Assembly (NCBI RefSeq): GCF_024223415.1
Contig: NZ_CP100500.1
Direction: 5' to 3' (one strand)
Length of the DNA stretch: 64,000 bases
Source of the DNA: Escherichia coli
GTDB taxonomy: Bacteria; Pseudomonadota; Gammaproteobacteria; Enterobacterales; Enterobacteriaceae
The translations under genes were made by a program, and so were the position numbers. Below the pieces are notes generated by a model. It made no database searches. It was not told where the DNA came from and saw nothing but the letters and a program-made list of their open reading frames with translations. Shown here piece by piece: positions 4,793-37,951 of this stretch. How positions within the stretch are numbered: the first letter of the stretch is position 1; each line of letters starts with the position of its first letter.

Positions 4793-4993
4793 TCACCAGC
4801 TACACAGTATATACACACTGACGCTGACAGTAGTCAGCAGGACCACAATAATCAGTGCCAGCAGTATGGTAACGATACGGTCTGTATTCCGGTAATAGCC
4901 GAAGGGGTCGACAGAACCACAATACGGGCAACACACTGTATTATGAGTAATCGCGTTTCCACAGTCCCTGCACTTCTTTTTGCGTATCACCAT
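4793..4993 (-). CDS. small zinc-ribbon protein with C-terminal transmembrane helix (about 66 aa), function unknown
   Basis: CRDCG...CCPYCG double CxxC followed by a hydrophobic stretch ILLALIIVVLLTTVSVSVYIL; GGAGGG ribosome-binding site 5 nt upstream of the ATG. Confidence 0.5.
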   Translation of the reverse strand: MVIRKKKCRDCGNAITHNTVCCPYCGSVDPFGYYRNTDRIVTILLALIIVVLLTTVSVSVYILCSW

Positions 4994-5156
4994 CACTCCC
5001 TCCTCACAGCCTTACCCGTAACCGGTTTTTTACATTAAAAAAACAACGCTGAAAATTCAACCGTCAGTCCGGAGACGACCGTTCGGGTTATCACAGAGTG
5101 CCTGAGACAGTGTCCTGCCGGAGGTCACTTCAGGGACTCTGCGCATTTTTTACGAC

Positions 5157-5762
5157 GTGGCTATTCCGTATGAACCATACGGAGATTTAACCATGACCTA
5201 CAAATACAACCCCTTCTGGCAGCAACGTATTCGTGAGACGGTGCGGCACGCACTGAATGTTCATCCCCGCCTGACGGCATTGCGGGTTGACCTGCGTTTC
5301 CCGGATGTACCGGCAGCAACGGACGCAGCTGTGATATCCCGCTTCATCAATGCCCTGAAAGCCCGAATCGACGCTTACCAGAAACGTAAGCATCGGGAAG
5401 GTAAACGCGTGCATCCCACCACCCTGCATTACGTCTGGGCCCGGGAGTTTGGGGAGTGCAAAGGTAAAAAACACTATCACCTGATGCTGCTGGTTAACCG
5501 GGATACCTGGTGTCGTGCCGGTGATTACCGTGCTCCGGGATCACTGGCCGGGATGATTAAACAGGCGTGGTGCAGTGCCCTGGGAGTGGATGTCGGGTGC
5601 CATGCCACGCTGGTGCATTTTCCGGCCTGGCCGGCGGTGTGGCTGGAACGCGATGATGACACTGGCTTTCAGCAGGTGCTGGAACGTGCTGACTATCTGG
5701 CGAAGGAACATACCAAAGCTCACTGCACCGGTGAGCGCAATTTTGGCTGTAGCCGGAGTTGA
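5157..5762 (+). CDS. HUH-type rolling-circle Rep-like protein (inovirus Gp2 / YagK-YfjJ-like family)
   Basis: 201-aa ORF with the motif KKHYHLMLLV (His-hydrophobic-His) and candidate Tyr motifs; family assignment from memory, not searched. Confidence 0.55.
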   Translation: MAIPYEPYGDLTMTYKYNPFWQQRIRETVRHALNVHPRLTALRVDLRFPDVPAATDAAVISRFINALKARIDAYQKRKHREGKRVHPTTLHYVWAREFGECKGKKHYHLMLLVNRDTWCRAGDYRAPGSLAGMIKQAWCSALGVDVGCHATLVHFPAWPAVWLERDDDTGFQQVLERADYLAKEHTKAHCTGERNFGCSRS

Positions 5763-6015
5763 GCACGACTGGCGCGCCAATATCCGGCAAACCAAAAGTA
5801 TGGGTTGTTGTCTGGCGGCAACGATGTATCCACTCGCCCACTGACTGTTTTTTACGTCAGTGTTCCATTGTGTGACAACCACAGTGCTGTAACAGCAACC
5901 AGCCTGCTTTACCCAAACTCCAGTCCAGATTTTAACTGAACCGCCATTCACACCCTGACCACGCTGCCCGTACCGGGACGGCTGTTGCCTGCGTGTCGTC
6001 TGGCGGCTGAGGAAT

Positions 6016-6423
6016 ATGACTATGTACGCAAAATCCTTTATCGCTCTTGATGGCAACGGACGTCTGACGGGCGCCCGTACTGCACAGGCCGCACCTTATG
6101 CTAACTACACCTGCCACTTGTGTGGCAGTGCACTCAGATACCATCCGCAATACGACACTGAACTTCCCTGGTTTGAACACACTGACGACAGGCTGACAGA
6201 GCACGGTCAACAGTGCCCTTATGTCAGGCCGGAGCGCAGAGAAATACAGTTGATTAAACGTCTGCAGCAATTCGTACCGGATGCCTTACCCGTGGTGCGT
6301 AAAGCCAGCTGGCACTGCAGACAATGTCACCACGATTATTATGGGGAGCGGTACTGCACACACTGCCAGACCGGAGGATTCAGTATTCCCCGGACAACTC
6401 AGGAGGAAATATGCGAATTCTGA
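6016..6423 (+). CDS. Cys-rich hypothetical protein A (putative double zinc-ribbon)
   Basis: 135-aa ORF; conserved pattern CxxC...PWFEH...C...CxxC...DYxGExxCxxC shared with the next ORF. Confidence 0.55.
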   Translation: MTMYAKSFIALDGNGRLTGARTAQAAPYANYTCHLCGSALRYHPQYDTELPWFEHTDDRLTEHGQQCPYVRPERREIQLIKRLQQFVPDALPVVRKASWHCRQCHHDYYGERYCTHCQTGGFSIPRTTQEEICEF

Positions 6424-6821
6424 ACTGTTATATGGCGAATGACAGCAAAGGCCATTTTGTTACGGCGAAAGAAGCAGCGAAGCACAACCGCCAGGACGTT
6501 TTGTGCTGTGTGTCCTGTGGATGCCCGTTAACACTTCAGCGGGGCAATGACGGACAACCACCGTGGTTTGAACATGACCAGATGACTGTCGCTGAGAAAA
6601 TCCTGCTGCGATGCACCTGGCTTGACCCGGCAGAGAAAGAGGCCCGTCGTTTGCATCTGCAGGGTATGACGGTTCCGGATTATACGGTGAAGGTGAGAAA
6701 GTGGTTTTGTGTGATGTGTGACGAAGATTATGAAGGAGAAAAGTGCTGCCCGCGTTGTGGTACCGGGGTATACAGCAGGGAGGGGGGGCTGCAGGAAGGC
6801 AACTGGAAGGATAGGAACTGA
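6411..6821 (+). CDS. Cys-rich hypothetical protein B, paralogue of A, translationally coupled
   Basis: ATG at 6411 lies just upstream of the stop of the previous ORF (6421-6423); same Cys/PWFEH pattern. Confidence 0.55.
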   Translation: MRILNCYMANDSKGHFVTAKEAAKHNRQDVLCCVSCGCPLTLQRGNDGQPPWFEHDQMTVAEKILLRCTWLDPAEKEARRLHLQGMTVPDYTVKVRKWFCVMCDEDYEGEKCCPRCGTGVYSREGGLQEGNWKDRN

Positions 6822-7024: not shown

Positions 7025-8757
7025 AAAAGTGGTTCTTCCGCAACCTGGGTGGAAGAAAATGGATGAAACTTTCTGGCGAACAAGGATCTAAGCTGTTTTA
7101 AGTTATGGGCAACGCAATGCACTCTCTTAAGACACTTCTACAGTTACCTTGCGGATGGCGATGCAGTCGACAAATTATTAGCTCTGACGGTATAACCCTC
7201 CATCTCCACGGAAAACGCAAAACAGCACAATGTCCTGAATGCTTTAAGCGTAGCGACTCTGTTCATAGTTGTCGTCGGCGCCGGATACAGCATCTACCCT
7301 GCTCAGGGCAGACGCTATGGCTTGTATTTTCCGTCCGCCACTGGTACTGCCGTAACCCGGCTTGTTCACGTAAAATTTTTGCCGAGTCGCTTGCTCCCTT
7401 CGCCGGTTCACACCAGCAGTCTTCACAGGCGTTACAAAATTTACAACGTCAACTGGGATTAATAGCTGGAGGTGAGGCTGGAAAACGGGCTGCAACGGCA
7501 GCGGGTCTCCGTTGCAGTGCTGATACTCTTCTTCGCAGGGTATCAATACCCCGGAGACGAAACAGTCAGGCGCGCCTCATGTCGGTATTGATGAGTGGGC
7601 GTGGCATCGGGGCCACTGCTGCGGTATGTTAATAGTCAATCTTGATACTCACCGTCCCCTCGTCCTGCTTCCCGGCCGTGATCAGCGTACGCTGGCGACC
7701 TGGTTCAGAAAATATCCGGAAATACAGGTTGTCTCGCGTGATCGCAGTGGAGTCTATGCGACAGCAGCACGTGAAGGTGCACCTCAGGCCAGACAGGTGG
7801 CCGATCGATGGCACCTGCTAAAAAATATTGGTGATGAGCCTGAACGAATGATGTACAGACATATGCCTCTGATACGTCTTGTTGTCAGAGAGTTATCACT
7901 GAAGAAATCACCTGAGCCAGAAATATCTGTGCCTGTAGCATCGCTCCGTCGTCTGGAACGCCTTAAACAGCACATCCGCAAAAAACGGCATCAGCGTTGG
8001 ACAGAGGTTATGGCCCTGCATAACAAGGGATGTAGTTTCAGGGAAATATCCCGTATTACAGGCCTGTCGCGAGTGACAGTCAGTCGCTGGGTGGGTTCAG
8101 GAACATTCCCTGAAATGTCAACTAGGCCTCCAAAGCGAGGGCTTCTGGACCCATGGAGGGAGTGGTTAAAAGAGCAACGAGAATGTGGTAATTATAACTC
8201 CGGCCGGATATGGCGGGAAATGGTGGCCAGGGGGGTTACAGGCAGTGAAACCATCGTCAGGGATGCTGTTGCCAAATGGCGTAAAGGCTGGATCCCACCG
8301 GTTACTACTGCCGCAAGACTTCCTTCAGTGTCCCGGGTAAGCCGCTGGTTGATGCCCTGGAGAATAATCAGGGGTGAAGAAAATTATGCTTTCCGATTTA
8401 TTAGTCTGATGTGTGAAAAAGAACCGGAGTTGAAAATAGCGCAGCAACTGGTACTCGAGTTCTACCGTATTCTGAAAACCTAAAATAAATCACAGCTAAG
8501 CAGCTGGTTCACTCGGGTCCACGAAAGCGGCTCAGCAGAACTTCGGTGCGTAGCTGCGGGGATGGAAGCTGATGCTGCGGCTATATGTGAGGCAATCAGC
8601 AGTCGCTGGAGTACTGGTGTTGTCGAAGGTCATGTAAATCGCCTGAAGGTGCTGATACGCCAGATGTATGGTCGAGCCGGACTTGAACTACTTAGGCGGA
8701 GGGTAATGAGTCCACTGGCATGAAAATCTTCACCCAGGTTGCGGAAGAGCCACTTTT
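7025..8757 (+). mobile_element. ISL3-family insertion sequence with imperfect terminal inverted repeats, decayed
   Basis: Left end aaaagtggttcttccgcaacctgggtg at about 7025-7051 and its near-perfect reverse complement at about 8731-8757; encloses an ISL3-type transposase. Confidence 0.7.
7105..8722 (+). pseudogene. ISL3-family transposase, disrupted by a frameshift near 7588 and an in-frame TAA at 8481-8483
   Basis: N-terminal zinc-finger region (CPECF...), ...IDEWAWHRGHCCGMLIVNLDTHRPL readable only after a frame change, then ...VVEGHVNRLKVLIRQMYGRAGLELLRRRV continues in frame after the stop. Confidence 0.75.
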
Positions 8758-8766
8758 GCACTGTTC

Positions 8767-9095
8767 GTGACAGTATGGCCTTTATGTACTCACTTTGTTA
8801 CCGGTAGCTGGATCATCACTACCGTGCTGCAAATGGTGGTGAACAGCATCAATTGTGGAATGAATGTTGCCGAAGCGACCAATGCGCCTCGTTTCCACTA
8901 TCAGTGGTTGCCGGACGAGCTGCGTGTTGAAAAGGGTTTAGTCCGGATACGCTCAAGCTGCTGGATGCAAAAGGTCAGAAAGTGGCGCTGAATGAGGCGA
9001 TGGGCAGCACGCAAAGCATTATGGTTGGGTCGGATGGTGAGTTGTACGGCGCATCCGACTCGCGCTTGGTGGATGATTTAACGGCGGGGTATTAA
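8767..9095 (+). pseudogene. ggt: gamma-glutamyltranspeptidase C-terminal fragment, frameshifted in an A-run near 8935
   Basis: GSWIITTVLQMVVNSI...NAPRFHYQWLPDELRVEKG then, after a 1-nt frame change, FSPDTLKLLDAKGQKVALNEAMGSTQSIMVGSDGELYGASDSRLVDDLTAGY; starts directly at the ISL3 right end. Confidence 0.7.
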
Positions 9096-9134
9096 TTGAC
9101 ATCCCCCGGCGCAATGTGCCGGGGGATAATGGTT

Positions 9135-10169
9135 TTATGCGGTCAATAATCGTCCGGGATTATCGATACAGAGTTTTTTGAGGATCGTTTTATCGACGCC
9201 GCGCTCCGCCAGATAGGCCAGAAAAACATCTGGAACAAATCCCCAGCCATTACCGCCATTTTTAGCCCACATTTGTTTAAGGAAGACATCGTGGCTGAGA
9301 ACAAGCTGATCGGCGTATCCCAACTCAATGAGATGAGCGACGGCATCGGCAGTCTCCTGCACCCCTGGCGCTATTCCCTCTTTCGGGAAGGTAATGTCTA
9401 GGCCAATCATGTCGAATTCCAGCCAGACACCTTTATCAAGCATTTTCCGCTGATACGCCACGTCTTTTCCTGACGGATCCGAGTGTGCGAGAGAGACTTT
9501 ATTTGGCGAGACGCCCATTTCACCTAACACAATGTCGAGTACTTCATCACCGCGACGAAGCCAGCCCGGCATGTGAATATTCATCGCCACATGAGGATTG
9601 TTAATCTGTGCCAGCGAGGCAGCCCGCAAGCTGTTATGCTCGGCTTCGGTAAATGTCGGTGAAACACCTATTTCACCGATCATTCCGGCACGAATATCCG
9701 TATCGCCAATCCCTTGATTCAATTCTTTATCGATCGTTGTCGCCAGTTCATCAACCGTTTTATGAATTCTCTGGCTTTCAAATTTTTCCAGGTAGGGACC
9801 GGAGGAAGCAACAATATTCAGACCTGTTTTTAATGCGACTTCTCGTAATGCCTGCGCATCTCGTCCGATAGACTCAGACCCTGTGGCATCAATAATGGTG
9901 CGACCACCGAGCGAGATAAAGTTATTGATTTCGAAGATCACATCTTCAATAGGTTTGCGGTCCATATTATCAGCGCAGCAATAAGGATCGTGTTTTAATG
10001 CCCACTGGATTTCTGCCGTGACTTTTTTATCAACAAGCCGTTGTGAAAAAGGATAGCAAGGAGCATCCACAACAGAGGAAAGATCGTTGAACAGATGTTC
10101 ATGAGGAAGTGTTAGCCCCATATCTTCACGGGCGACGGGGCCCGTCACAGTTTGTAGATAATCTTTCAT
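9135..10169 (-). CDS. phosphotriesterase-family metal-dependent hydrolase (Php-like, TIM-barrel amidohydrolase; possible lactonase)
   Basis: 344 aa; N-terminal GLTLPHEHL metal-binding motif characteristic of the PTE family. Confidence 0.8.
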   Translation of the reverse strand: MKDYLQTVTGPVAREDMGLTLPHEHLFNDLSSVVDAPCYPFSQRLVDKKVTAEIQWALKHDPYCCADNMDRKPIEDVIFEINNFISLGGRTIIDATGSESIGRDAQALREVALKTGLNIVASSGPYLEKFESQRIHKTVDELATTIDKELNQGIGDTDIRAGMIGEIGVSPTFTEAEHNSLRAASLAQINNPHVAMNIHMPGWLRRGDEVLDIVLGEMGVSPNKVSLAHSDPSGKDVAYQRKMLDKGVWLEFDMIGLDITFPKEGIAPGVQETADAVAHLIELGYADQLVLSHDVFLKQMWAKNGGNGWGFVPDVFLAYLAERGVDKTILKKLCIDNPGRLLTA

Positions 10170-10171
10170 GA

Positions 10172-11137
10172 TTATACCTCCATTTTCTTCATTGTTTTCG
10201 AGGTTCTGTATTCCGGAATAGTGGTAACAATTGCACCGACCAGTGCAAACAGTGTTCCGATGATCGTGACCAGATAAACGCTATTGCCCAGCGATGGAAT
10301 TAATACGTCAATCAATACTGATCCCAGTAACTGGCCCGCCGTTGAAGCAACCCCCAGCATCAGTAACCCCAGACCTCTGACCAAAATGGCCATTAAACCG
10401 ATAGACATTAGTCCAAGCGGGCCGCCAAGATACATCCACCAGACATCTGGTAATTGAACAGTGACGTGCCCTAATGCGACACGAATAGCAAGCGCTGTGC
10501 CTAAAACACAAAATCCAACGATGAAATTCTAGGTGATTGAAACCAGCATGGATCCCGTAGCTTCAGCTACTTTTGCATTTCCAGCGGGCTGCCATCCTGC
10601 AAGCAAACCAGCTAAGAACGGAAGAATGGCAAGTAAGATGAAAGAGGTAGAATGCCACTGAGGTGACACAACAAAAATCGTAGCAATAACCGCAAATAAT
10701 GCACCGATGATGCAATAAGGGGTAAAGTATTTTTTCTCGTCGACACCGATACCAAAGCGATCGCAAAGTAAACCAGACAGCAATAGCGCGGAGATCAGTG
10801 CGGTTTGAAACGTTGCGACCCCGAGTGCGCTGGCTGATGCGCCTTCAGAAAATACCACCATCGCTCCACAGAGACCGGCAAACCAGTTCCAGAGAGGAAC
10901 TTTTCGGTTTTTAATCAGAGAAGGAATTGCCGCAAATTGTTGCCGGGTTTCTTTTCGCGCCATAATAATAAAAAACATCACGACTAAACCACTGGCAAAG
11001 GAGATAACTGCGCATGCATTACCATCCTGTAACCAGTGACCTAATTGACCATTCACCGCTGATTGCATAGGGGAGAGCATACCCGCAAGAATCGTGGCAA
11101 GCATCCATAAGGGAGTTGAGTACTTATTCTTTTTCAT
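10172..11137 (-). pseudogene. DMT-superfamily (DUF606/YdcZ-like) membrane transporter interrupted by an in-frame amber codon at 10529-10531
   Basis: ORFs 10529..11137 and 10172..10435 are in the same frame; the sequence between them encodes hydrophobic helix-like residues; the single TAG (plus-strand cta) separates them. Confidence 0.7.
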
Positions 11138-11193
11138 ACATCAATCCTTCTATTATAGTAAATGGAGTAACTGGAGTTACCCCATTATTATTA

Positions 11194-11952
11194 TTATCTT
11201 GCAATATGAGTCAGTATATTTACCCACAACGCGGTATAGAACGGCCAGGACATAAACTGCTGTGTACCCCAGTGCGGTGAACAGTCACTCATAAAGCAGG
11301 CTATTTTCCCGTTGTGATAGTTACCAAAGACCAGTAATGGAGCGTTGTTTATTGTTAATACCACCTCAGCATTTTCTTTAGCGATCGCCCGGTTATAACC
11401 TAGGAAAAAAGGATATTCAGAGAACCCTTTAATAACTGGATGTTCAGGTTGTGATGGCTGTGCAATAACACCCTCTGGTTTTTCGACACGATCGTCACCA
11501 TCTAACATCGTAACCGGGAGCACATCAGCCAGAACTGTATTTTTATAATTGGCTTTTGCTTCAATTCCCATGAATGAGAGATAGCCGCCAATCATCAATA
11601 ACCCACCACCGTTATTCACATATTCTTTAATCAGTTCGAGAGCGTTTGGTTTTATGCGAAGCTGATAAAAAGTATCATTTTGTAGCAGGAAAGTATTACT
11701 ACCAATATCACTAATAACGATGGCATCATATTGTTCTAACTGTGCCACATCTTCAGGGAAGGCAATTTGTACCGTATGTGCTGGCATATAGGTGACATCT
11801 ACCTGACTATTTTTCAGACACTGGAGTAACCAGGTCGCACCTTCTTCATATTTACTTGAGGTAAAACTGTCATATCCTTTTGAATGAATCATATGAATAT
11901 GCCAGGATTCCCCAATAAAGAGCACTTTTAGTGATTTTTTGGTGTTATTCAT
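11194..11952 (-). CDS. ThuA-like / class I glutamine-amidotransferase-like domain protein
   Basis: 252-aa ORF; fold assignment from sequence impression only. Confidence 0.45.
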   Translation of the reverse strand: MNNTKKSLKVLFIGESWHIHMIHSKGYDSFTSSKYEEGATWLLQCLKNSQVDVTYMPAHTVQIAFPEDVAQLEQYDAIVISDIGSNTFLLQNDTFYQLRIKPNALELIKEYVNNGGGLLMIGGYLSFMGIEAKANYKNTVLADVLPVTMLDGDDRVEKPEGVIAQPSQPEHPVIKGFSEYPFFLGYNRAIAKENAEVVLTINNAPLLVFGNYHNGKIACFMSDCSPHWGTQQFMSWPFYTALWVNILTHIAR

Positions 11953-11965
11953 TCTCTGTCCCTTC

Positions 11966-13180
11966 TTAATGCGTAAAAATAGTTTGCTGATAATGTATAC
12001 TCTGAATTCGATGTATCACAGATTCATGTTCAGGCATGTCGGAAGCATTGCTTGTCTCCACCGCTAGGGATGCAAAGGCGCTGGCATAACACAGTGCTGA
12101 TTCCAGTGATTTTCCTTTCGCAAGTCCTGATGCCAGAGAGCCGTTAAACGCATCCCCGGCTCCTGCCGTATTTTTAACGACCGCTGGAAACGCTGGCGAA
12201 TGAATGAATTTTTTGCCATCAAATGCGAGCGAGCCCTTGCTACCGAGCGTGATAACCGTGTTTTTTACCCCTTTATTGTGGATAGCTTCTGCAGCTCGTT
12301 TAGCTGATTCAAGATCGTGTACGTCTATGCCGGACAGTAAACCAGCTTCTGTTTCATTGGGGGTGATATAATCAACATCCTGAATAAGTTCGTTGACGAT
12401 ATCATTATAGGGTGCCGGGTTAATAATGACCGGGATACTGTTTTTTTGCGCCAATGTGATCGCTTGTTGCAGAGCGGTATAATTTGTTTCGAGCTGCAGA
12501 AGTATGACATCAGAATTAATAATCGCTTCTTTCTGAATAGTTATTTCATCGGACGACATTGTCATGTTGGCACCGGGATAGATCGCAATAACATTATCGC
12601 CAGTACCTTCATTAACAAGGATCGTGGCAGTTCCGGTTTGCGTTTCTTTCGTTTGATAAATTATACTTTTATAAATCTTAGACGAATTCATAAAGTTGAT
12701 CGCATAATCACTAAAGTGATCTGTACCTACTTTTGTTATGAAATAAACATCAGTATCGGCAAAGCTTGCTGCCAGCGCCTGGTTACAGCCTTTTCCCCCC
12801 GGTGAAAATATAAAATTACTTGCCAGAAGCGATTCTCCGATAGTGGGAAGCCTCGGCAAATAACTGATGATATCAACATTAAACGAACCAATAACGCATA
12901 CTTGACTTTTCATAGTTGAGTGGCCTTTTTTTATTCCCTGGGCTGTATCATAATTTTCAAGCGCATAAGCGATTTCATTTTTCGCAATAGTATCAAGCGA
13001 GTCTAGGACGATAAAAGCACCGCCATGACATCGAGTCAGATAGCCAAGCCTGGCAAGTTCATTAAGATCTGAACGAATAGTTTCTTTCGTTACATTGAGG
13101 CTATTGGACAGATCGGATACTTTTACAGAACCGAATTTACTGAGTCGTTTCAATATTTCATGATGGCGTTCAAATTTCAT
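11966..13180 (-). CDS. fusion protein: N-terminal DeoR-type HTH plus PfkB/ribokinase-family carbohydrate kinase
   Basis: N-terminus HHEILKRLSKFGSVKVSDLSNSLNVTKETIRSDLNELARLGYL (DeoR HTH); kinase motifs GGKGCNQA and NTAGAGDAFNGSLASGL. Confidence 0.7.
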   Translation of the reverse strand: MKFERHHEILKRLSKFGSVKVSDLSNSLNVTKETIRSDLNELARLGYLTRCHGGAFIVLDSLDTIAKNEIAYALENYDTAQGIKKGHSTMKSQVCVIGSFNVDIISYLPRLPTIGESLLASNFIFSPGGKGCNQALAASFADTDVYFITKVGTDHFSDYAINFMNSSKIYKSIIYQTKETQTGTATILVNEGTGDNVIAIYPGANMTMSSDEITIQKEAIINSDVILLQLETNYTALQQAITLAQKNSIPVIINPAPYNDIVNELIQDVDYITPNETEAGLLSGIDVHDLESAKRAAEAIHNKGVKNTVITLGSKGSLAFDGKKFIHSPAFPAVVKNTAGAGDAFNGSLASGLAKGKSLESALCYASAFASLAVETSNASDMPEHESVIHRIQSIHYQQTIFTH

Positions 13181-13287
13181 GCTTCACCTCACTTCAGTTA
13201 CGTTAATATCTATCGATGTATATTGATGTGATAATCACCATAAAGTGGCGGGGAAAAGCAAAAAAAAGCAAAAATAGCCTGAGAAAA

Positions 13288-13850
13288 GGTAAGCGTTAAT
13301 GGAGAATCATATTGATGCTTATTTATTGGTGAGAACTACGTTCCATGGCAGGAGTTCATCAATACGGTTGGAAGGTTATTCCGGCAGTACGCTCAGGATA
13401 TGGCGCAGATACGCTTCCGGATCAATGTCGTTCAGAAGGCAAGTGCCGATAAGCCCATACAACAGTGCACTGCGCTCGCCGCCGAAGAACATAAAGTTTT
13501 TATTTCCGAGACAGATGGCACAAAGGGCTTTTTCCGCGGCATTATGTCTGCCTCCGCCTGACCGTCAACACTGTAATAACAGAGTGCGCCCCACTGATTC
13601 AGTACACAGCTGAACCATTCTCCCAGTCTGGATTTTTGGATAGCGTGGCATTTTTCTCCACCATGCATGCAGTGAGTCCAGTAACAGTTTGCTCTTCTTC
13701 TGCCTGACCACAAGATGTGCTGGACTGGTAAACGATGGGGATACCTGCTTACGCGAGAGCAATAAGTGGCTGGCCACAATTCTCGGTACAAAACTCTGCT
13801 GAATAGCAGCGATTTTCCCAGCGTGGTGCGTCGTTTTCATTTTACTGGTT
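13288..13850 (-). mobile_element. IS66-family remnant: terminal repeat (GTAAGCG at 13288) plus frameshifted 3' part of a transposase gene
   Basis: Minus-strand translation near 13327-13380 gives PSNRIDELLPWNVVLTNK*, resembling the IS66 transposase C-terminus; upstream frames are broken. Confidence 0.6.
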
Positions 13851-15230
13851 CTAAGTTAACAATTATCTGTTCACTAATGACTACTCTAAAAACTTGTATC
13901 AGGACTATCACTTATTTAAGTGATATTGGTTGTCTGGAGATTCAGGGGGCCAGTCTATAAACTTTTTACAAAAGGATGAATGCAGAAGGTTACTCTAATG
14001 GCCAGAGTGATGACAATGATGGTCAGACGTTGACCTGCAGAAACTGCATTTTAATTGGTCTATAAAGTCTGCAAGAGGAATCAGGGTCAGATCAGTGAGT
14101 CTTATCGCGGCCCGAAGCTATGACTGAAAGAAGGCTGGATACAGAATTGCAACAATTTGGCAATGTCAGAACACAGAAGCTTTGCAAGCAGGTGAAAGGT
14201 TATGTCTAGCAAAAGGAGTATATCAGAATACATCTACTGATGTACAAAACACAACAATAGCTTCATGATATATAAATACGTGATGACGAGTGGTACTCCG
14301 CATGGTTATTTAACTTCTCAGCACCACTAATGATCCTGAGCAACTTCGTATTTGGGCCATTGCCATGGAGTAGAAAGCTGTGTCTGAGAATGCAGAATTT
14401 GAGAAAAGAATTCGCTTTCTTGGAGAGCTTCTGAAAATGGCACGCTAACAACGTTTTGTTAAAAAATGTGAATCACTTGCCGGGGCTGCATTTTCTATTC
14501 GAGGAGAATGTTGACGTAGATATTACAGAAATCTCAGCGCATCAGGATAAACTGCTACCTTAGGTCAACCACCAAAAGAAAATACAATACGTCCAGTTTG
14601 TATGCCTTTAATAACACATCTTCTAAATGTTGAAGAATTATCCCGCCTGCTGAAGAACGTTGCTCTGAGTGTGATAAACCTTTTTATTCTTGATGATGTC
14701 AGCGAGAAGATGGAATATATCCCCGACTGGGTCGTGGTTACCCGGTTAAACATCTGGTGGCGCTAATAAATCTGGCAAGTCACATTCTGTTGAATGCTGT
14801 GACAGTGCCTTACCGAGAGAGCGAAATTGTGGTGTTCTAGTGCATAGTCGCCACCATTCCGGATAATTCTATTGCGTTGTTTTACAAGTTCTTTTACAGC
14901 GCAGATCTGTTGCTGACGTTGAATCAATAGCCTGGATTTCAGAACACAATGCCCGTTTGCTGGTTGGTCCGGCAGTAGCATTAATTCATTATCTGAATGA
15001 AATGTGTCAATCCACAGAAACCGCTGTCAATGACACATTTTGTCGGACGTTAACACGAGAAAGTCTGGCTATTCCGTAATGCCATCTTATTTCGTAATGG
15101 ATTGAGAATGCTGGATTTTTAATTATATTACGCGCAGTATTAATCGCGTAAATGTTTTGCGGTCAGCAACGGTGGGGGATCCATTGTTCTGTTCAATGAA
15201 TACCATCATACATTTGAATCAGGAGTCGGT

Positions 15231-15776
15231 ATGATGATTTTGGTGACGGGGGGCGCACGGAGCGGGAAGAGTCGCCACGCAGAGGCGCTTATTGGGGACT
15301 CTTCACAGGTTCTGTATATCGCTACCTCGCAAATCCTTGATGATGAGATGGCTGCACGGATAGAACATCATCGGCAAGGCCGCCCGGAGCACTGGCGCAC
15401 AGTGGAGCGCTGGCAACATCTTGATGAATTAATTCATGCAGACATTAACCCGAATGAGGTTGTGTTGCTGGAATGCGTTACCACAATGGTGACTAATCTG
15501 TTGTTTGATTATGGCGGCGATAAAGACCCTGATGAATGGGATTATCAGGCGATGGAACAGGCGATTAATGCTGAGATTCAGTCGTTGATTGCTGCCTGCC
15601 AACGTTGCCCCGCAAAGGTTGTATTAGTGACTAACGAAGTGGGAATGGGGATTGTGCCGGAGAGTCGTCTGGCACGACATTTTCGTGATATTGCCGGGCG
15701 GGTAAATCAGCAGTTGGCCGCTGCGGCAAATGAAGTATGGCTGGTGGTTTCGGGTATTGGAGTAAAAATCAAATGA
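15231..15776 (+). CDS. cobU: adenosylcobinamide kinase / adenosylcobinamide-phosphate guanylyltransferase
   Basis: 181 aa, [19 protein letters not shown]-loop; first gene of cobU-cobS-cobT. Confidence 0.95.
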
Positions 15777-16516
15777 GTAAATTATTTTGGGCGATGCTCT
15801 CATTTATTACGCGTCTGCCTGTACCGCGTCGCTGGTCCCAGGGACTGGATTTCGAGCATTATTCTCGCGGTATTATTACTTTTCCTTTAATTGGATTATT
15901 GCTTGGCGCGATTAGCGGGCTGGTCTTCATGGTGCTGCAGGCATGGTGTGGCGTACCACTGGCGGCACTGTTTAGCGTACTTGTGCTGGCGCTGATGACC
16001 GGGGGATTCCACCTGGACGGCCTCGCCGATACCTGTGATGGCGTATTTTCTGCACGTAGCCGCGATCGCATGTTGGAAATCATGCGTGATAGCCGTTTAG
16101 GCACCCATGGCGGTCTGGCATTGATTTTTGTTGTACTGGCAAAGATTCTGGTATTAAGCGAGTTGGCTCTGCGTGGCGAACCGATCCTTGCATCGCTGGC
16201 GGCAGCATGTGCGGTCAGCCGCGGGACTGCCGCATTATTGATGTATCGTCATCGTTATGCGCGGGAAGAAGGGCTTGGCAATGTGTTCATTGGCAAAATT
16301 GATGGGCGACAAACCTGCGTCACACTCGGCTTAGCCGCTATTTTTGCTGCCGTATTATTGCCGGGTATGCATGGTGTGGCTGCTATGGTGGTGACGATGG
16401 TGGCGATTTTCATCCTCGGTCAGCTTCTCAAACGTACGCTGGGCGGGCAAACCGGCGATACGCTGGGAGCTGCTATAGAGCTTGGTGAACTGGTCTTCCT
16501 GCTGGCACTGCTATAA
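15773..16516 (+). CDS. cobS: adenosylcobinamide-GDP ribazoletransferase (cobalamin synthase)
   Basis: 247-aa membrane protein; ATG overlaps the cobU TGA (ATGA). Confidence 0.95.
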
Positions 16517-18659: not shown

Positions 18660-18735
18660 TGGCTCCTCTGACTGGACTCGAACCAGTGACATACGGATTA
18701 ACAGTCCGCCGTTCTACCGACTGAACTACAGAGGA
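18660..18735 (-). tRNA. asnV: tRNA-Asn (GUU)
   Basis: Reverse complement matches the E. coli tRNA-Asn sequence including CCA. Confidence 0.95.
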
Positions 18736-21068: not shown

Positions 21069-21144
21069 TGGCTCCTCTGACTGGACTCGAACCAGTGACA
21101 TACGGATTAACAGTCCGCCGTTCTACCGACTGAACTACAGAGGA
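21069..21144 (-). tRNA. asnU: tRNA-Asn (GUU)
   Basis: Identical sequence to asnV. Confidence 0.95.
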
Positions 21145-22892: not shown

Positions 22893-22968
22893 TCCTCTGT
22901 AGTTCAGTCGGTAGAACGGCGGACTGTTAATCCGTATGTCACTGGTTCGAGTCCAGTCAGAGGAGCCA
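22893..22968 (+). tRNA. asnW: tRNA-Asn (GUU)
   Basis: TCCTCTGTAGTTCAGTCGGTAGAACGGCGGACTGTTAATCCGTATGTCACTGGTTCGAGTCCAGTCAGAGGAGCCA. Confidence 0.95.
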
Positions 22969-23029
22969 AATTTTAGTTTTGAGATATCTCTATAAGTCTC
23001 AAAACAGTTAAAAAATAAAAATTATTTTT

Positions 23030-23067
23030 ACCCGGCCGCTTTGTAAAAAAAAGTGGCCGGGTTTTTT
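23030..23067 (+). terminator. Rho-independent terminator downstream of asnW
   Basis: acccggccgctttgtaaaaaaaagtggccgggtttttt. Confidence 0.6.
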
Positions 23068-23423
23068 GATTTCTGTGTTTCGTGCGCTTAATCGAGTCTC
23101 ACGCTTCAGTGAGCAAATTGCCCCTCCCCAACAGACATCACGATTCACAGGGTCAAAAATTCTGTTCCATGAAGTACCGTACAAAGATAAAGAGAAAAAT
23201 GCCTTATGCGGGATGTAGCTGTCGCGTCTTTATCGGGAAACTATACGTAATTGCCACTTTGTCTTCGGTAATCAGAAAAAGAAGACCTGGAATTTTAATA
23301 AATATTATTTCTCTGGGGGCGGTATTTTTATAATCAATATGACGAGTTGAACATTATATTTATTATAAGAATTATATGAAATTAAAGAAATCTGCCATAA
23401 AGACAGATTTCTTTAAAATATAA

Positions 23424-24140
23424 TTAGAGATTTGCGACGTTATGATAAACTTTTTGAACATCGTCGTCATCTTCAAGGGCATCAACAAGCCCTTCAAAGA
23501 TTTCTAAATCTTCTGGGGAAAGCTCAACTTCAGATTGAGCAATCATTTCTAATTCTGTTGTTGAGAACTCAGTGATTCCAGCAGCTTTTAGAGCCGCGAT
23601 TCCTTTATGAAGGTCAGTAGGTTCAGTATAAATAACAATATTACCTTCTTCTTCAGTTACATCACGAACATCAACTTCAGCTTCAAGTAAAATTTCAAAA
23701 ATATGGTCAGGGTCTGTTCCTTTAAATACAATCACACCCGTATTGTCAAACATATAGCTGACAGAACCTGCCGCTCCGATATTGCCGCCTTTTTTATTGA
23801 AAATTGTGCGAACGTTAGCAATCGTACGGTTAACATTTGAAGTCAAGGTCTCGGCGATAATCATTGAGCCATTAGGACCAAAGCCTTCATAACGGCCCTG
23901 CACGAACGTTTCATCTCCGCCGCCTTTGGCTTTATCAATTGCTTTATCAATAACATGCTTTGGAACTTGTGCCTGCTTTGCTCGTTCAATAACGAATTTT
24001 AAAGATGTGTTTAATTCTGGATCGGGTTCACCTTGTTTGGCAGCAGCATAGATTTCTACACCGAATTTTGCATAAATTTTAGACGTCGCACCGTCTTTAG
24101 CCGTTTTTTTAGCAACAATATTGGCCCATTTACGTCCCAC
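23424..24140 (-). CDS. yeeN: YebC/PmpR-family probable transcriptional regulator
   Basis: 238 aa, [27 protein letters not shown]. Confidence 0.9.
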
Positions 24141-37875: not shown

Positions 37876-37951
37876 TGGCTCCTCTGACTGGACTCGAACC
37901 AGTGACATACGGATTAACAGTCCGCCGTTCTACCGACTGAACTACAGAGGA
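37876..37951 (-). tRNA. asnT: tRNA-Asn (GUU)
   Basis: Identical to asnV/asnU. Confidence 0.95.

Follow-up and report, generated by a model that had tools for sequence, protein, structure and literature searches.

The closest described relative of the locus examined here is a four-gene cluster of Salmonella, rikA (STM3547)-stm3548-stm3549-stm3550 (McCormick, Jabbar & Escalante-Semerena 2026, Mol Microbiol 126:129; PMC13432705). Its authors named Citrobacter, Escherichia, Budvicia and Proteus as carriers and suggested that the cluster encodes a pathway for some carbon source (PMC13432705). The STM3547 product, RikA, has 404 residues, phosphorylates ribose in vitro and supports growth on ribose; its Km for ribose is 2.0 mM, Asp343 is essential, and it acts poorly on deoxyribose, xylose and xylulose (PMC13432705). 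Relatives of the fourth protein are known from other settings. Pmi1525 of Proteus mirabilis HI4320 and Rsp3690 are cited in PMC5341072 as metal-stimulated esterases of the PTE family, the paper on Pmi1525 (Xiang et al. 2015, Biochemistry 54:2919) appearing in its reference list under a title that names a methylphosphonate esterase, and PTER is an N-acetyltaurine hydrolase/deacetylase (PMC11374699, PMC12873775). We analysed a 64,000-nucleotide stretch of Escherichia coli DNA (contig NZ_CP100500.1), referred to below as the window, in which four genes at positions 9135-13180 form a cassette that is, by sequence and gene order, the E. coli orthologue of the Salmonella cluster. As a gene set it was already described in 2026 and is not a discovery; two of its proteins have orthologues with a known crystal structure.

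From a comparison of the cluster across two phyla we propose, with a probability of roughly 55%, that it would be a catabolic or salvage module for a ribose-containing or very ribose-like small molecule, with the fusion protein of a DeoR-type helix-turn-helix (HTH) domain and a PfkB kinase regulating its own cluster.

The cassette and its Salmonella counterpart

The four genes are co-oriented in the order HTH-PfkB kinase, PF07090 protein, YdcZ-type DMT transporter and PTE-family hydrolase (Table 1). Their gaps of 13, 56 and 2 bp, all on the minus strand, bear out the common orientation and tight spacing described in a sequence-only reading of this DNA. The four-gene set given there also stands, with two corrections: the transporter gene carries a TAG stop codon, and the product called ThuA-like falls by Pfam into PF07090, with a ThuA-like fold. 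A scan for terminator-like sites gave none that convincingly divides the four genes, and promoter-like sites occurred at chance level (10 found against 9.5 expected). From the spacing, we infer that the four genes would be transcribed together.

All four proteins have full-length orthologues, with order and orientation kept, in Salmonella, Citrobacter, Budvicia, Providencia and Proteus. Identity between the E. coli proteins and those of Salmonella and Citrobacter is 81-95%, and 81-83% for the fusion kinase. Against the locus of Salmonella diarizonae, identity is 81% for the HTH, 82% for the kinase, 83% for the PF07090 (GATase1-like) protein, 95% for the transporter and 85% for the hydrolase; the hydrolase of S. 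enterica is 86% identical. The Salmonella kinase shares with that of E. coli the length of 404 residues, the DeoR-type HTH, Met90 and Asp343. The surroundings and the state of the genes differ: in Salmonella and Citrobacter the cluster adjoins an intact ggt gene, whereas the E. coli copy sits in an island beside cobU, flanked by insertion sequence (IS) elements, with about 300 bp of ggt; the transporter gene of the E. coli strain is a pseudogene; and synonymous sites are saturated between the copies. The sequence-only reading, which saw in the cassette a sugar-lactone pathway, had named close homology of the whole set to a characterised operon of different function as evidence against itself. 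Such homology exists in part, to a named cluster that encodes a ribose kinase.

A conserved gene trio joined repeatedly by ribokinase-type kinases

We collected 80 loci from a species-level genome collection and six from protein look-ups, mapping the genes by tblastn; the architecture counts that follow cover the 74 loci with complete flanks. The PF07090, DMT and PTE genes occur in the same order and orientation in 73 of them, which span Enterobacterales, Orbus, Succinivibrionaceae/Anaerobiospirillum and more than 15 actinobacterial genera, and the remaining locus, in Pseudonocardia, has the PTE gene alone. Hydrolases of this subfamily are 55-64% identical in Actinobacteria, Orbus and Succinivibrionaceae/Anaerobiospirillum. 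Since the order of the trio is kept while the flanking genes are unrelated between genera, we regard PF07090-DMT-PTE as a conserved functional unit.

What accompanies this core varies. A divergent LacI gene stands beside the core in 23 actinobacterial loci. In 13 others (Georgenia, Oerskovia, Cellulosimicrobium, Sanguibacter and others) it is accompanied by the series PF07090, kinase, DMT, PTE, and in 11 (Amycolatopsis, Brachybacterium, Rothia) by the core and a kinase gene after PTE; three further LacI arrangements, each seen at a single actinobacterial locus, also include a kinase. A divergent AraC gene is found with the core in six loci of Succinivibrionaceae/Anaerobiospirillum, two of which have a kinase after PTE. 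The HTH-kinase fusion heads the core in 17 loci of Enterobacterales and Orbus.

A kinase gene is therefore part of the cluster in 46 of the 74 loci, in several gene orders and at three different positions. Every embedded kinase has the ribokinase model TIGR02152 as its best match, at 225-274 bits for those of other phyla and 284.2 bits for that of E. coli. Kinases of different architectures are 29-32% identical to one another (85-135 bits), and the E. coli cluster kinase is 38% identical to the housekeeping ribokinase RbsK (174 bits). Being no closer to each other than to RbsK, and lying at three positions, the kinases appear to have been recruited independently and repeatedly from ribokinase-type genes, as these pairwise scores, with a single RbsK as reference, indicate. 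Repeated recruitment of ribokinases in turn suggests that ribose, or something very like it, is an intermediate of the pathway. The functional link between kinase, PTE-family hydrolase and transporter that the sequence-only reading had drawn is upheld by these counts. We also entertained the strong form of the opposite idea, a kinase that is a mere regulator domain outside the pathway, and dropped it on finding free-standing ribokinase-type kinases in 29 further loci.

At one of the AraC-type loci, that of Anaerobiospirillum thomasii (locus positions 9808-16386), the genes 3' of the core are rpiB-DUF3666 and those for a LacI regulator, a split transketolase and a TRAP transporter. Neighbours of this kind, related to the pentose-phosphate pathway, are consistent with a sugar as the substrate.

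The hydrolase falls into the PTER/Pmi1525-like branch

The hydrolase matches PF02126 (PTE; 2.3e-46), and its best match in the PDB is Pmi1525 (3RHG/4QSF; E=4.7e-174, residues 1-344), to which it is about 73-75% identical. Profile ranking places Pmi1525 ahead of Rsp3690 (3K2G) and eukaryotic PTER (9EFA), all aligned at full length, with residues 3-342 matched to 3K2G and residues 2-344 to residues 8-354 of 9EFA. Php, PTE and PLL lactonases, in contrast, align only from about residue 72-79. In the structure of PTER, the first two beta/alpha units are separated by a helical insertion that bacterial phosphotriesterases commonly lack (PMC12873775), and the E. coli hydrolase aligns through it. We conclude from these alignments that the hydrolase is a member of the PTER/Pmi1525-like branch of the PTE family. 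Pmi1525, a full-length orthologue, belongs to the same four-gene cluster in Proteus and has identical metal ligands. PTER shares with the E. coli hydrolase the branch and the alignment over its whole length and cuts a short acyl group from a small polar metabolite; it is distant, however (E=1e-36 with a single sequence), acts on an amide rather than an ester and has no operon context. The link between STM3550 and Pmi1525 is not made in the 2026 rikA paper, whose authors report having found no studies of STM3550 homologues.

All of 12 sequences compared, from three phyla, have H23, H25, E166, H199, H229 and D294; from knowledge of the family, we take these residues to be the metal ligands, namely the HxH pair, the bridging carboxylate, two histidines and the aspartate. 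A bridging glutamate in place of a carbamylated lysine is also found in Php and in the lactonase branch. Family models of other branches scored far below their cut-offs: 41.5 bits against 630 for phospho-furanose lactonase (NF045706), 108.6 against 486 for Php/YhfV (NF007373, a match over residues 77-340 only) and 81.5 against 500 for OPH (NF041153). The phospho-furanose lactonases of Lmo2620/Bh0225 type share PF02126 and the binuclear-metal chemistry of a TIM barrel with the E. coli hydrolase and differ from it in branch.

A PF07090 protein without the amidotransferase triad

The second protein matches PF07090 (GATase1_like) with E=1.1e-111 and, in the PDB, STM3548 (2GK3; E=7e-145); an AlphaFold2 model has a predicted local distance difference test score (pLDDT) of 86.5. 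Across phyla, alignments of 20-23 sequences have 51 invariant positions, many of them polar, including E15, S16, K25, D28, H59, D76, S81, D82, N86, D153, D154, R155, E157, H171, D223 and H227. No cysteine is invariant in these sequences, and the position expected for the catalytic cysteine, at the nucleophile elbow, is held by an invariant Tyr124 in a GGY motif. The protein lacks the Cys-His-Glu triad of class I glutamine amidotransferases and gave no match to the ThuA model PF06283. We consider it a probable enzyme or ligand-binding subunit and not a glutamine amidotransferase. ThuA-like proteins (PF06283; PDB 1T0B, 4E5V, 4JQS) resemble it in having the GATase1 fold, in occurring in sugar-utilisation clusters and in having no defined reaction, whereas it is only 15-20% identical to them and belongs to another Pfam family. 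Salmonella has a paralogue of the protein, STM1381 (PDB 3SOZ). A literature search on PF07090/DUF1355, PMI1522-1525 and the orf245/orf408 paralogues of SPI-2 turned up nothing useful on function.

A ribokinase-like kinase fused to a DeoR-type HTH

The fusion kinase comprises HTH_DeoR (PF08220, residues 5-56, 4.9e-15), a linker and a PfkB domain (residues 92-382, 1.2e-64). The PfkB domain takes the place of the C-terminal effector domain of the DeoR family (DeoRC), which is absent. The TIGR02152 score lies narrowly under the cut-off of 299.65 bits. Aligned with E. coli RbsK (PDB 1GQT/1RKD), all ribose-binding and catalytic motifs are kept, namely N101-x-D103, GGKGxNQ, E231 and GAGD with the catalytic Asp343. 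Like RbsK, the Salmonella orthologue has a Km for ribose of about 2 mM. Unlike RbsK, the cassette kinase has an N-terminal HTH and linker and is not linked to rbsDACB.

Several observations bear on the HTH as a regulator. A separate LacI (51 loci) or AraC (six loci) regulator accompanies the cluster in all 57 loci without the fusion and in none of the 17 with it, a mutual exclusion which argues that the fusion fills the regulator slot of the cluster. The HTH codons (1-60) are, on substitution rates, under purifying selection, with ratios of nonsynonymous to synonymous rates (dN/dS) of 0.02-0.22 in nine pairwise comparisons, similar to those of the kinase domain where estimable. The sequence GTGAGGT at the Shine-Dalgarno region is invariant in the alignment of E. 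coli, Salmonella and Citrobacter, and GAGGT is found in other genera. Met90, an internal methionine of the E. coli fusion, is conserved in Escherichia, Salmonella, Citrobacter, Budvicia, Klebsiella spallanzanii and Orbus and is missing from 13 of 13 orthologues in Proteus and Providencia. These comparisons suggest to us that the full-length fusion is made and would regulate the cluster; the product that begins at Met90 in Salmonella may be an additional isoform. On the minus strand at 12880-12935, AAAGG lies about 13 nucleotides 5' of the Met90 codon and could be a weak ribosome-binding site for the 35-kDa isoform reported for Salmonella RikA. The HTH-kinase gene of Providencia stuartii NCTC11800 (locus positions 4927-6128) is apparently frameshifted, with an open reading frame of 352 codons and a tblastn match split at 5952, so genes of the cluster decay outside E. 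coli as well.

Upstream of the fusion gene, the DNA is nearly invariant between E. coli, Salmonella and Citrobacter despite saturated synonymous sites in the adjacent gene. It includes a T-rich repeat about 75-95 nucleotides 5' of the M1 start codon, in which TGC units recur 10 bp apart. Among the 22 HTH-kinase loci of Enterobacterales, 21 have the motif TTTTTTTG[CGT]TTT at -86 to -90 relative to the ATG, against a background of one match in 653 kb. It occurs nowhere else in the window and is missing from the AraC-type loci. Closer to the gene, the conserved box reads TCAC-N6-GTGA-N3-TCAC in Salmonella and Citrobacter, and most genera keep its ATCACA part at -53 to -57. We considered strict TCAC-N6-GTGA as a general operator and dropped it, as it is found in Salmonella and Citrobacter alone, with E. 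coli and the other genera lacking it. Going by their conservation, the T-rich repeat and the TCACA box would be candidate operator or promoter elements. A scan of positions 8500-15300 matched no Rfam family, so a known riboswitch or small RNA does not explain the conserved leader.

Proposed pathway and alternative explanations

In the pathway that we propose, the YdcZ-type DMT permease would import a ribose conjugate, provided that transport is inward, and the PTER/Pmi1525-type hydrolase, with its binuclear metal centre, would remove an acyl or other ester- or amide-linked group. The PF07090 protein, of ThuA fold, would carry out a second step other than glutamine hydrolysis. The ribokinase-like domain would then phosphorylate the freed ribose and so feed the pentose-phosphate pathway. 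In Enterobacterales and Orbus the fusion would act as a one-component regulator, probably through the T-rich repeat and the TCACA box 5' of its own start. A broader claim, which we advance tentatively and with considerable doubt, is that the PF07090-YdcZ-PTE trio represents an unrecognised pathway for the catabolism of ribose conjugates that extends from Actinobacteria to gut Gammaproteobacteria, and that one polypeptide of Enterobacterales is both ribokinase and DeoR-type repressor. A ribosyl alkylphosphonate such as ribose-1-methylphosphonate, a by-product of carbon-phosphorus lyase, suggests itself as the substrate because an orthologue of the hydrolase goes by the name of methylphosphonate esterase; we think this special case highly improbable.

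A number of observations weigh against our proposal. Of the 73 core loci, 27 have no kinase, which is accordingly not obligatory. Pfam labels the YdcZ family (PF04657) a 'putative inner membrane exporter', BioCyc predicts two operons for the Salmonella cluster, and the conserved elements upstream might belong to the structure of the promoter, as phased T-tracts, and not form an operator. Pmi1525 reportedly has a kcat/Km of about 1e5 M-1 s-1 for 4-nitrophenyl butyrate and for methylphosphonate esters, and its reported substrates, carboxylate and methylphosphonate esters, are all artificial. Ribose phosphorylation is the only step of the pathway demonstrated for any orthologue, and the kcat/Km of RikA for ribose is about 50-fold under that of RbsK and similar to the off-target value of DeoK; the authors suggest that ribose may not be the true substrate (PMC13432705). 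In Salmonella, native translation signals gave only a product of about 35 kDa starting at Met90, and the same authors propose that the HTH may not be translated (PMC13432705).

Each of the alternatives draws on some of these points. The kinase might phosphorylate a pentono-1,4-lactone, which has the shape of ribofuranose, and the PTE-family enzyme might open the lactone-5-phosphate, as in systems of Lmo2620/Bh0225 type. Phospho-furanose lactonases do exist within the PTE family, kinases recur in the clusters that hold the PTE gene, the bridging ligand Glu166 would suit such an enzyme, and the modest kcat/Km of RikA on ribose leaves room for another ribose-shaped substrate. We nevertheless think it unlikely: the hydrolase scores far under the cut-off of the lactonase model and lies in the PTER-like branch with its N-terminal helical insertion, whose members Pmi1525, Rsp3690 and PTER are, as far as the cited sources go, ester or amide deacylases; the 27 core loci without a kinase are hard to square with a kinase that makes the substrate of the hydrolase; and the PF07090 protein is left without a role. 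Phospho-sugar lactonase chemistry was the substance of the sequence-only reading, which on present evidence was wrong there, the orthologous kinase acting on free D-ribose, and right about horizontal acquisition and functional linkage.

In a different account, the HTH-PfkB protein would be mainly a transcription factor whose kinase fold senses a ligand, as in ROK-family repressors, and its ribose kinase activity would be a side reaction; the PF07090, DMT and PTE proteins would then act on a substrate other than ribose, for instance a short-chain N- or O-acyl polar metabolite of the PTER kind. The kinase-free core loci and the position of the fusion in the regulator slot speak for this, as do the hydrolysis of N-acetyltaurine by PTER and the low ribose activity of RikA, which its authors call possible moonlighting (PMC13432705). 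A sensor does not account for the conservation of Asp343 and the full set of ribokinase motifs, nor for the HTH-less ribokinases recruited independently in Actinobacteria and Succinivibrionaceae beside LacI or AraC regulators, and we judge the account improbable. Least probable of the three is a detoxification or export module in which the YdcZ protein expels the product that the PTE-family enzyme makes by hydrolysis of a toxic ester or organophosphonate, with no catabolism of carbon. It would suit the Pfam label of PF04657 and the title of the Pmi1525 paper as cited; the consistent company of LacI-family regulators of sugar type and ribokinase-type kinases, the rpiB, transketolase and TRAP-transporter genes adjoining in Anaerobiospirillum and the lack of recurrent resistance or stress genes in the neighbourhoods examined all make it very unlikely. 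A module for a ribose-containing or ribose-like molecule remains the reading that we prefer.

A common nonsense allele of the transporter

The cluster is not intact in this strain. An in-frame TAG at 10529-10531 replaces Trp203 (TGG) of the transporter and is the sole internal stop in the translation; RefSeq annotates the identical sequence as a pseudogene with 'internal stop'. Three other E. coli genomes have TGG at codon 203 and an intact transporter of 321 residues, in which Pfam finds DMT_YdcZ at residues 10-154 (3.7e-30) and 169-303 (1.3e-15). The exact 61-mer that contains the TAG is present in 599 of 2038 E. coli records carrying the transporter gene (about 29%), so the nonsense allele is the mark of a common lineage and no error of sequencing. 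It probably disables uptake, and hence the pathway, in the strain analysed here.

Genomic setting, acquisition and decay in E. coli

The window covers the cobUST-ldtA-nac-cbl-yeeO-yeeN-amn-shiA-yeeJ region of E. coli, and the cassette is a self-contained accessory unit in an IS-scarred island beside cobU. Of 5426 complete E. coli genomes, 1909 (about 35%) contain at least 80% of the region; in K-12 JM109 only an IS fragment matches and the cassette is absent. That the genes are no E. coli core operon, as the sequence-only reading had it, is confirmed by this distribution, and their horizontal acquisition and accessory status are supported further by the IS remnants on both sides, a foreign piece of ggt and the low third-position guanine-plus-cytosine content (GC3) of two of the genes. 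The ggt piece, of 293 bp, is 80-82% identical to the DNA directly 3' of the PTE gene in Salmonella diarizonae and Citrobacter, where a complete, convergent ggt lies beside that gene. It follows that the cassette came from a genome in which the cluster adjoined ggt, and carried the end of ggt along. Between the stop codon of the PTE gene and the end of the ggt fragment lies a hairpin of 12 pairs, 9 of them G-C. The arrangement of ISL3 pseudogene and ggt fragment is the same in three other E. coli strains.

Synonymous sites are saturated between the E. coli copies and those of Salmonella and Citrobacter (proportions of differences, pS, of 0.75-0.83), so the transfer is old or the donor is unsampled. 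Other E. coli strains have IS3, IS66 or IS1 insertions in the region, or deletions after which nothing but the 3' part of the PTE gene is left; these changes and the nonsense allele point to weak selection on the cassette in E. coli. In the literature, a paper on GI-cobU makes no mention of the cassette genes.

The GC content of the cassette is 43.8% (window 48.5%). Among 4-kb windows, those with the lowest GC in the entire 64 kb are found at 10.5-15 kb, and about 10% equal the cassette or fall below it. The deviation is uneven. Kinase (GC 41.6%, GC3 36%) and PF07090 (GC 39.9%, GC3 36%) genes are clearly deviant, whereas the PTE (GC 47.5%, GC3 45%) and DMT (GC 46.4%, GC3 45%) genes are not more AT-rich than ldtA, nac and cbl, whose GC3 is 44-46%. 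The AT-richness ascribed to all four genes in the sequence-only reading thus holds for the first two and is marginal for the others. Because every host of the cluster with about 50-54% GC (Salmonella, Citrobacter, Klebsiella spallanzanii, Budvicia) has the same pattern, it is a property of the cluster and not of this E. coli strain.

Table 1. Features of the cassette and of its borders, with positions in the window
Feature	Position	Strand	Evidence
HTH_DeoR-PfkB fusion kinase, rikA orthologue, 404 residues	11966..13180	-	Pfam, NCBIfam, alignment to RbsK
STM3548 orthologue, PF07090 GATase1_like, 252 residues	11194..11952	-	Pfam, PDB match 2GK3
STM3549 orthologue, DMT-superfamily transporter with two YdcZ (PF04657) repeats, pseudogene here	10172..11137	-	Translation, Pfam
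STM3550/Pmi1525 orthologue, PTE-family binuclear-metal amidohydrolase, PTER-like branch, 344 residues	9135..10169	-	Pfam, PDB profile ranking
Candidate operator or bent-DNA element, T-rich direct repeat TTTTTGCTTTTTTTTGCTTTT	13254..13274	-	Upstream alignments and motif counts
Candidate operator or core-promoter element, conserved box CCACTTTATGGTGATTATCACA	13227..13248	-	Upstream alignments
Shine-Dalgarno region GTGAGGTGAAGC, directly 5' of the M1 ATG of the fusion gene	13181..13195	-	Upstream alignments
GC-rich palindromic hairpin, 12 bp, likely bidirectional terminator closing the cassette	9101..9127	.	Terminator-like scan and reading of the sequence
Foreign gamma-glutamyltransferase (ggt) 3' fragment, convergent with the cassette	8803..9095	+	RefSeq: partial, frameshifted ggt
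ISL3-family transposase pseudogene, boundary of cassette and ggt fragment on one side	7105..8723	+	RefSeq annotation of identical sequence
IS66-family transposase remnant, boundary of the cassette on the other side	13376..13714	-	RefSeq annotation; megablast of 13281-13400 to IS66/ISEc23 elements

Between the cassette and cobU, positions 13181-15230 hold about 2 kb of gene debris with 42.5% GC. Besides the IS66 remnant it contains, between that remnant and cobU, an IS4 fragment (14739-14927) and a fragment of a cobalamin biosynthesis gene (14936-15079). Beyond the IS66 remnant the cargo varies by strain, with yaiO/yaiP-like genes in some and aspartate ammonia-lyase and a C4-dicarboxylate transporter in others. 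On the other side, 5' of the ISL3 pseudogene, the island carries on the plus strand an 'inovirus Gp2 family' gene (5193-5762) and two overlapping genes for zinc-ribbon proteins (6022-6423 and 6411-6821); none of the three has an NCBIfam match, and they accompany the cassette in four of the four E. coli strains examined. Farther away, four tRNA-Asn(GTT) genes (18660-18735, 21069-21144, 22893-22968 and 37876-37951), within 20 kb, are interspersed with ldtA, nac, cbl, yeeO and yeeJ. Genes for tRNA-Asn are classic sites of island integration; the cassette island lies at cobU and not at any of them. The lowest GC of the first 24 kb (0.33-0.35) is found at 23000-23750, between the tRNA-Asn gene at 22893-22968 and yeeN, a YebC/PmpR-family gene (23424-24140).

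Implications

The comparison adds to the described cluster a trio of genes that is conserved in gut and soil bacteria of two phyla and to which kinases appear to have been added several times independently. It places the hydrolase with mammalian PTER and the esterase Pmi1525, and it finds the DeoR-type HTH evolving as the regulator of the cluster would. About 29% of the carrier records in E. coli, including the strain analysed here, have the transporter nonsense allele. Taken together, the comparative data can guide the choice of strains, protein forms and compound classes for experiments, and they make the substrate of the pathway easier to look for.

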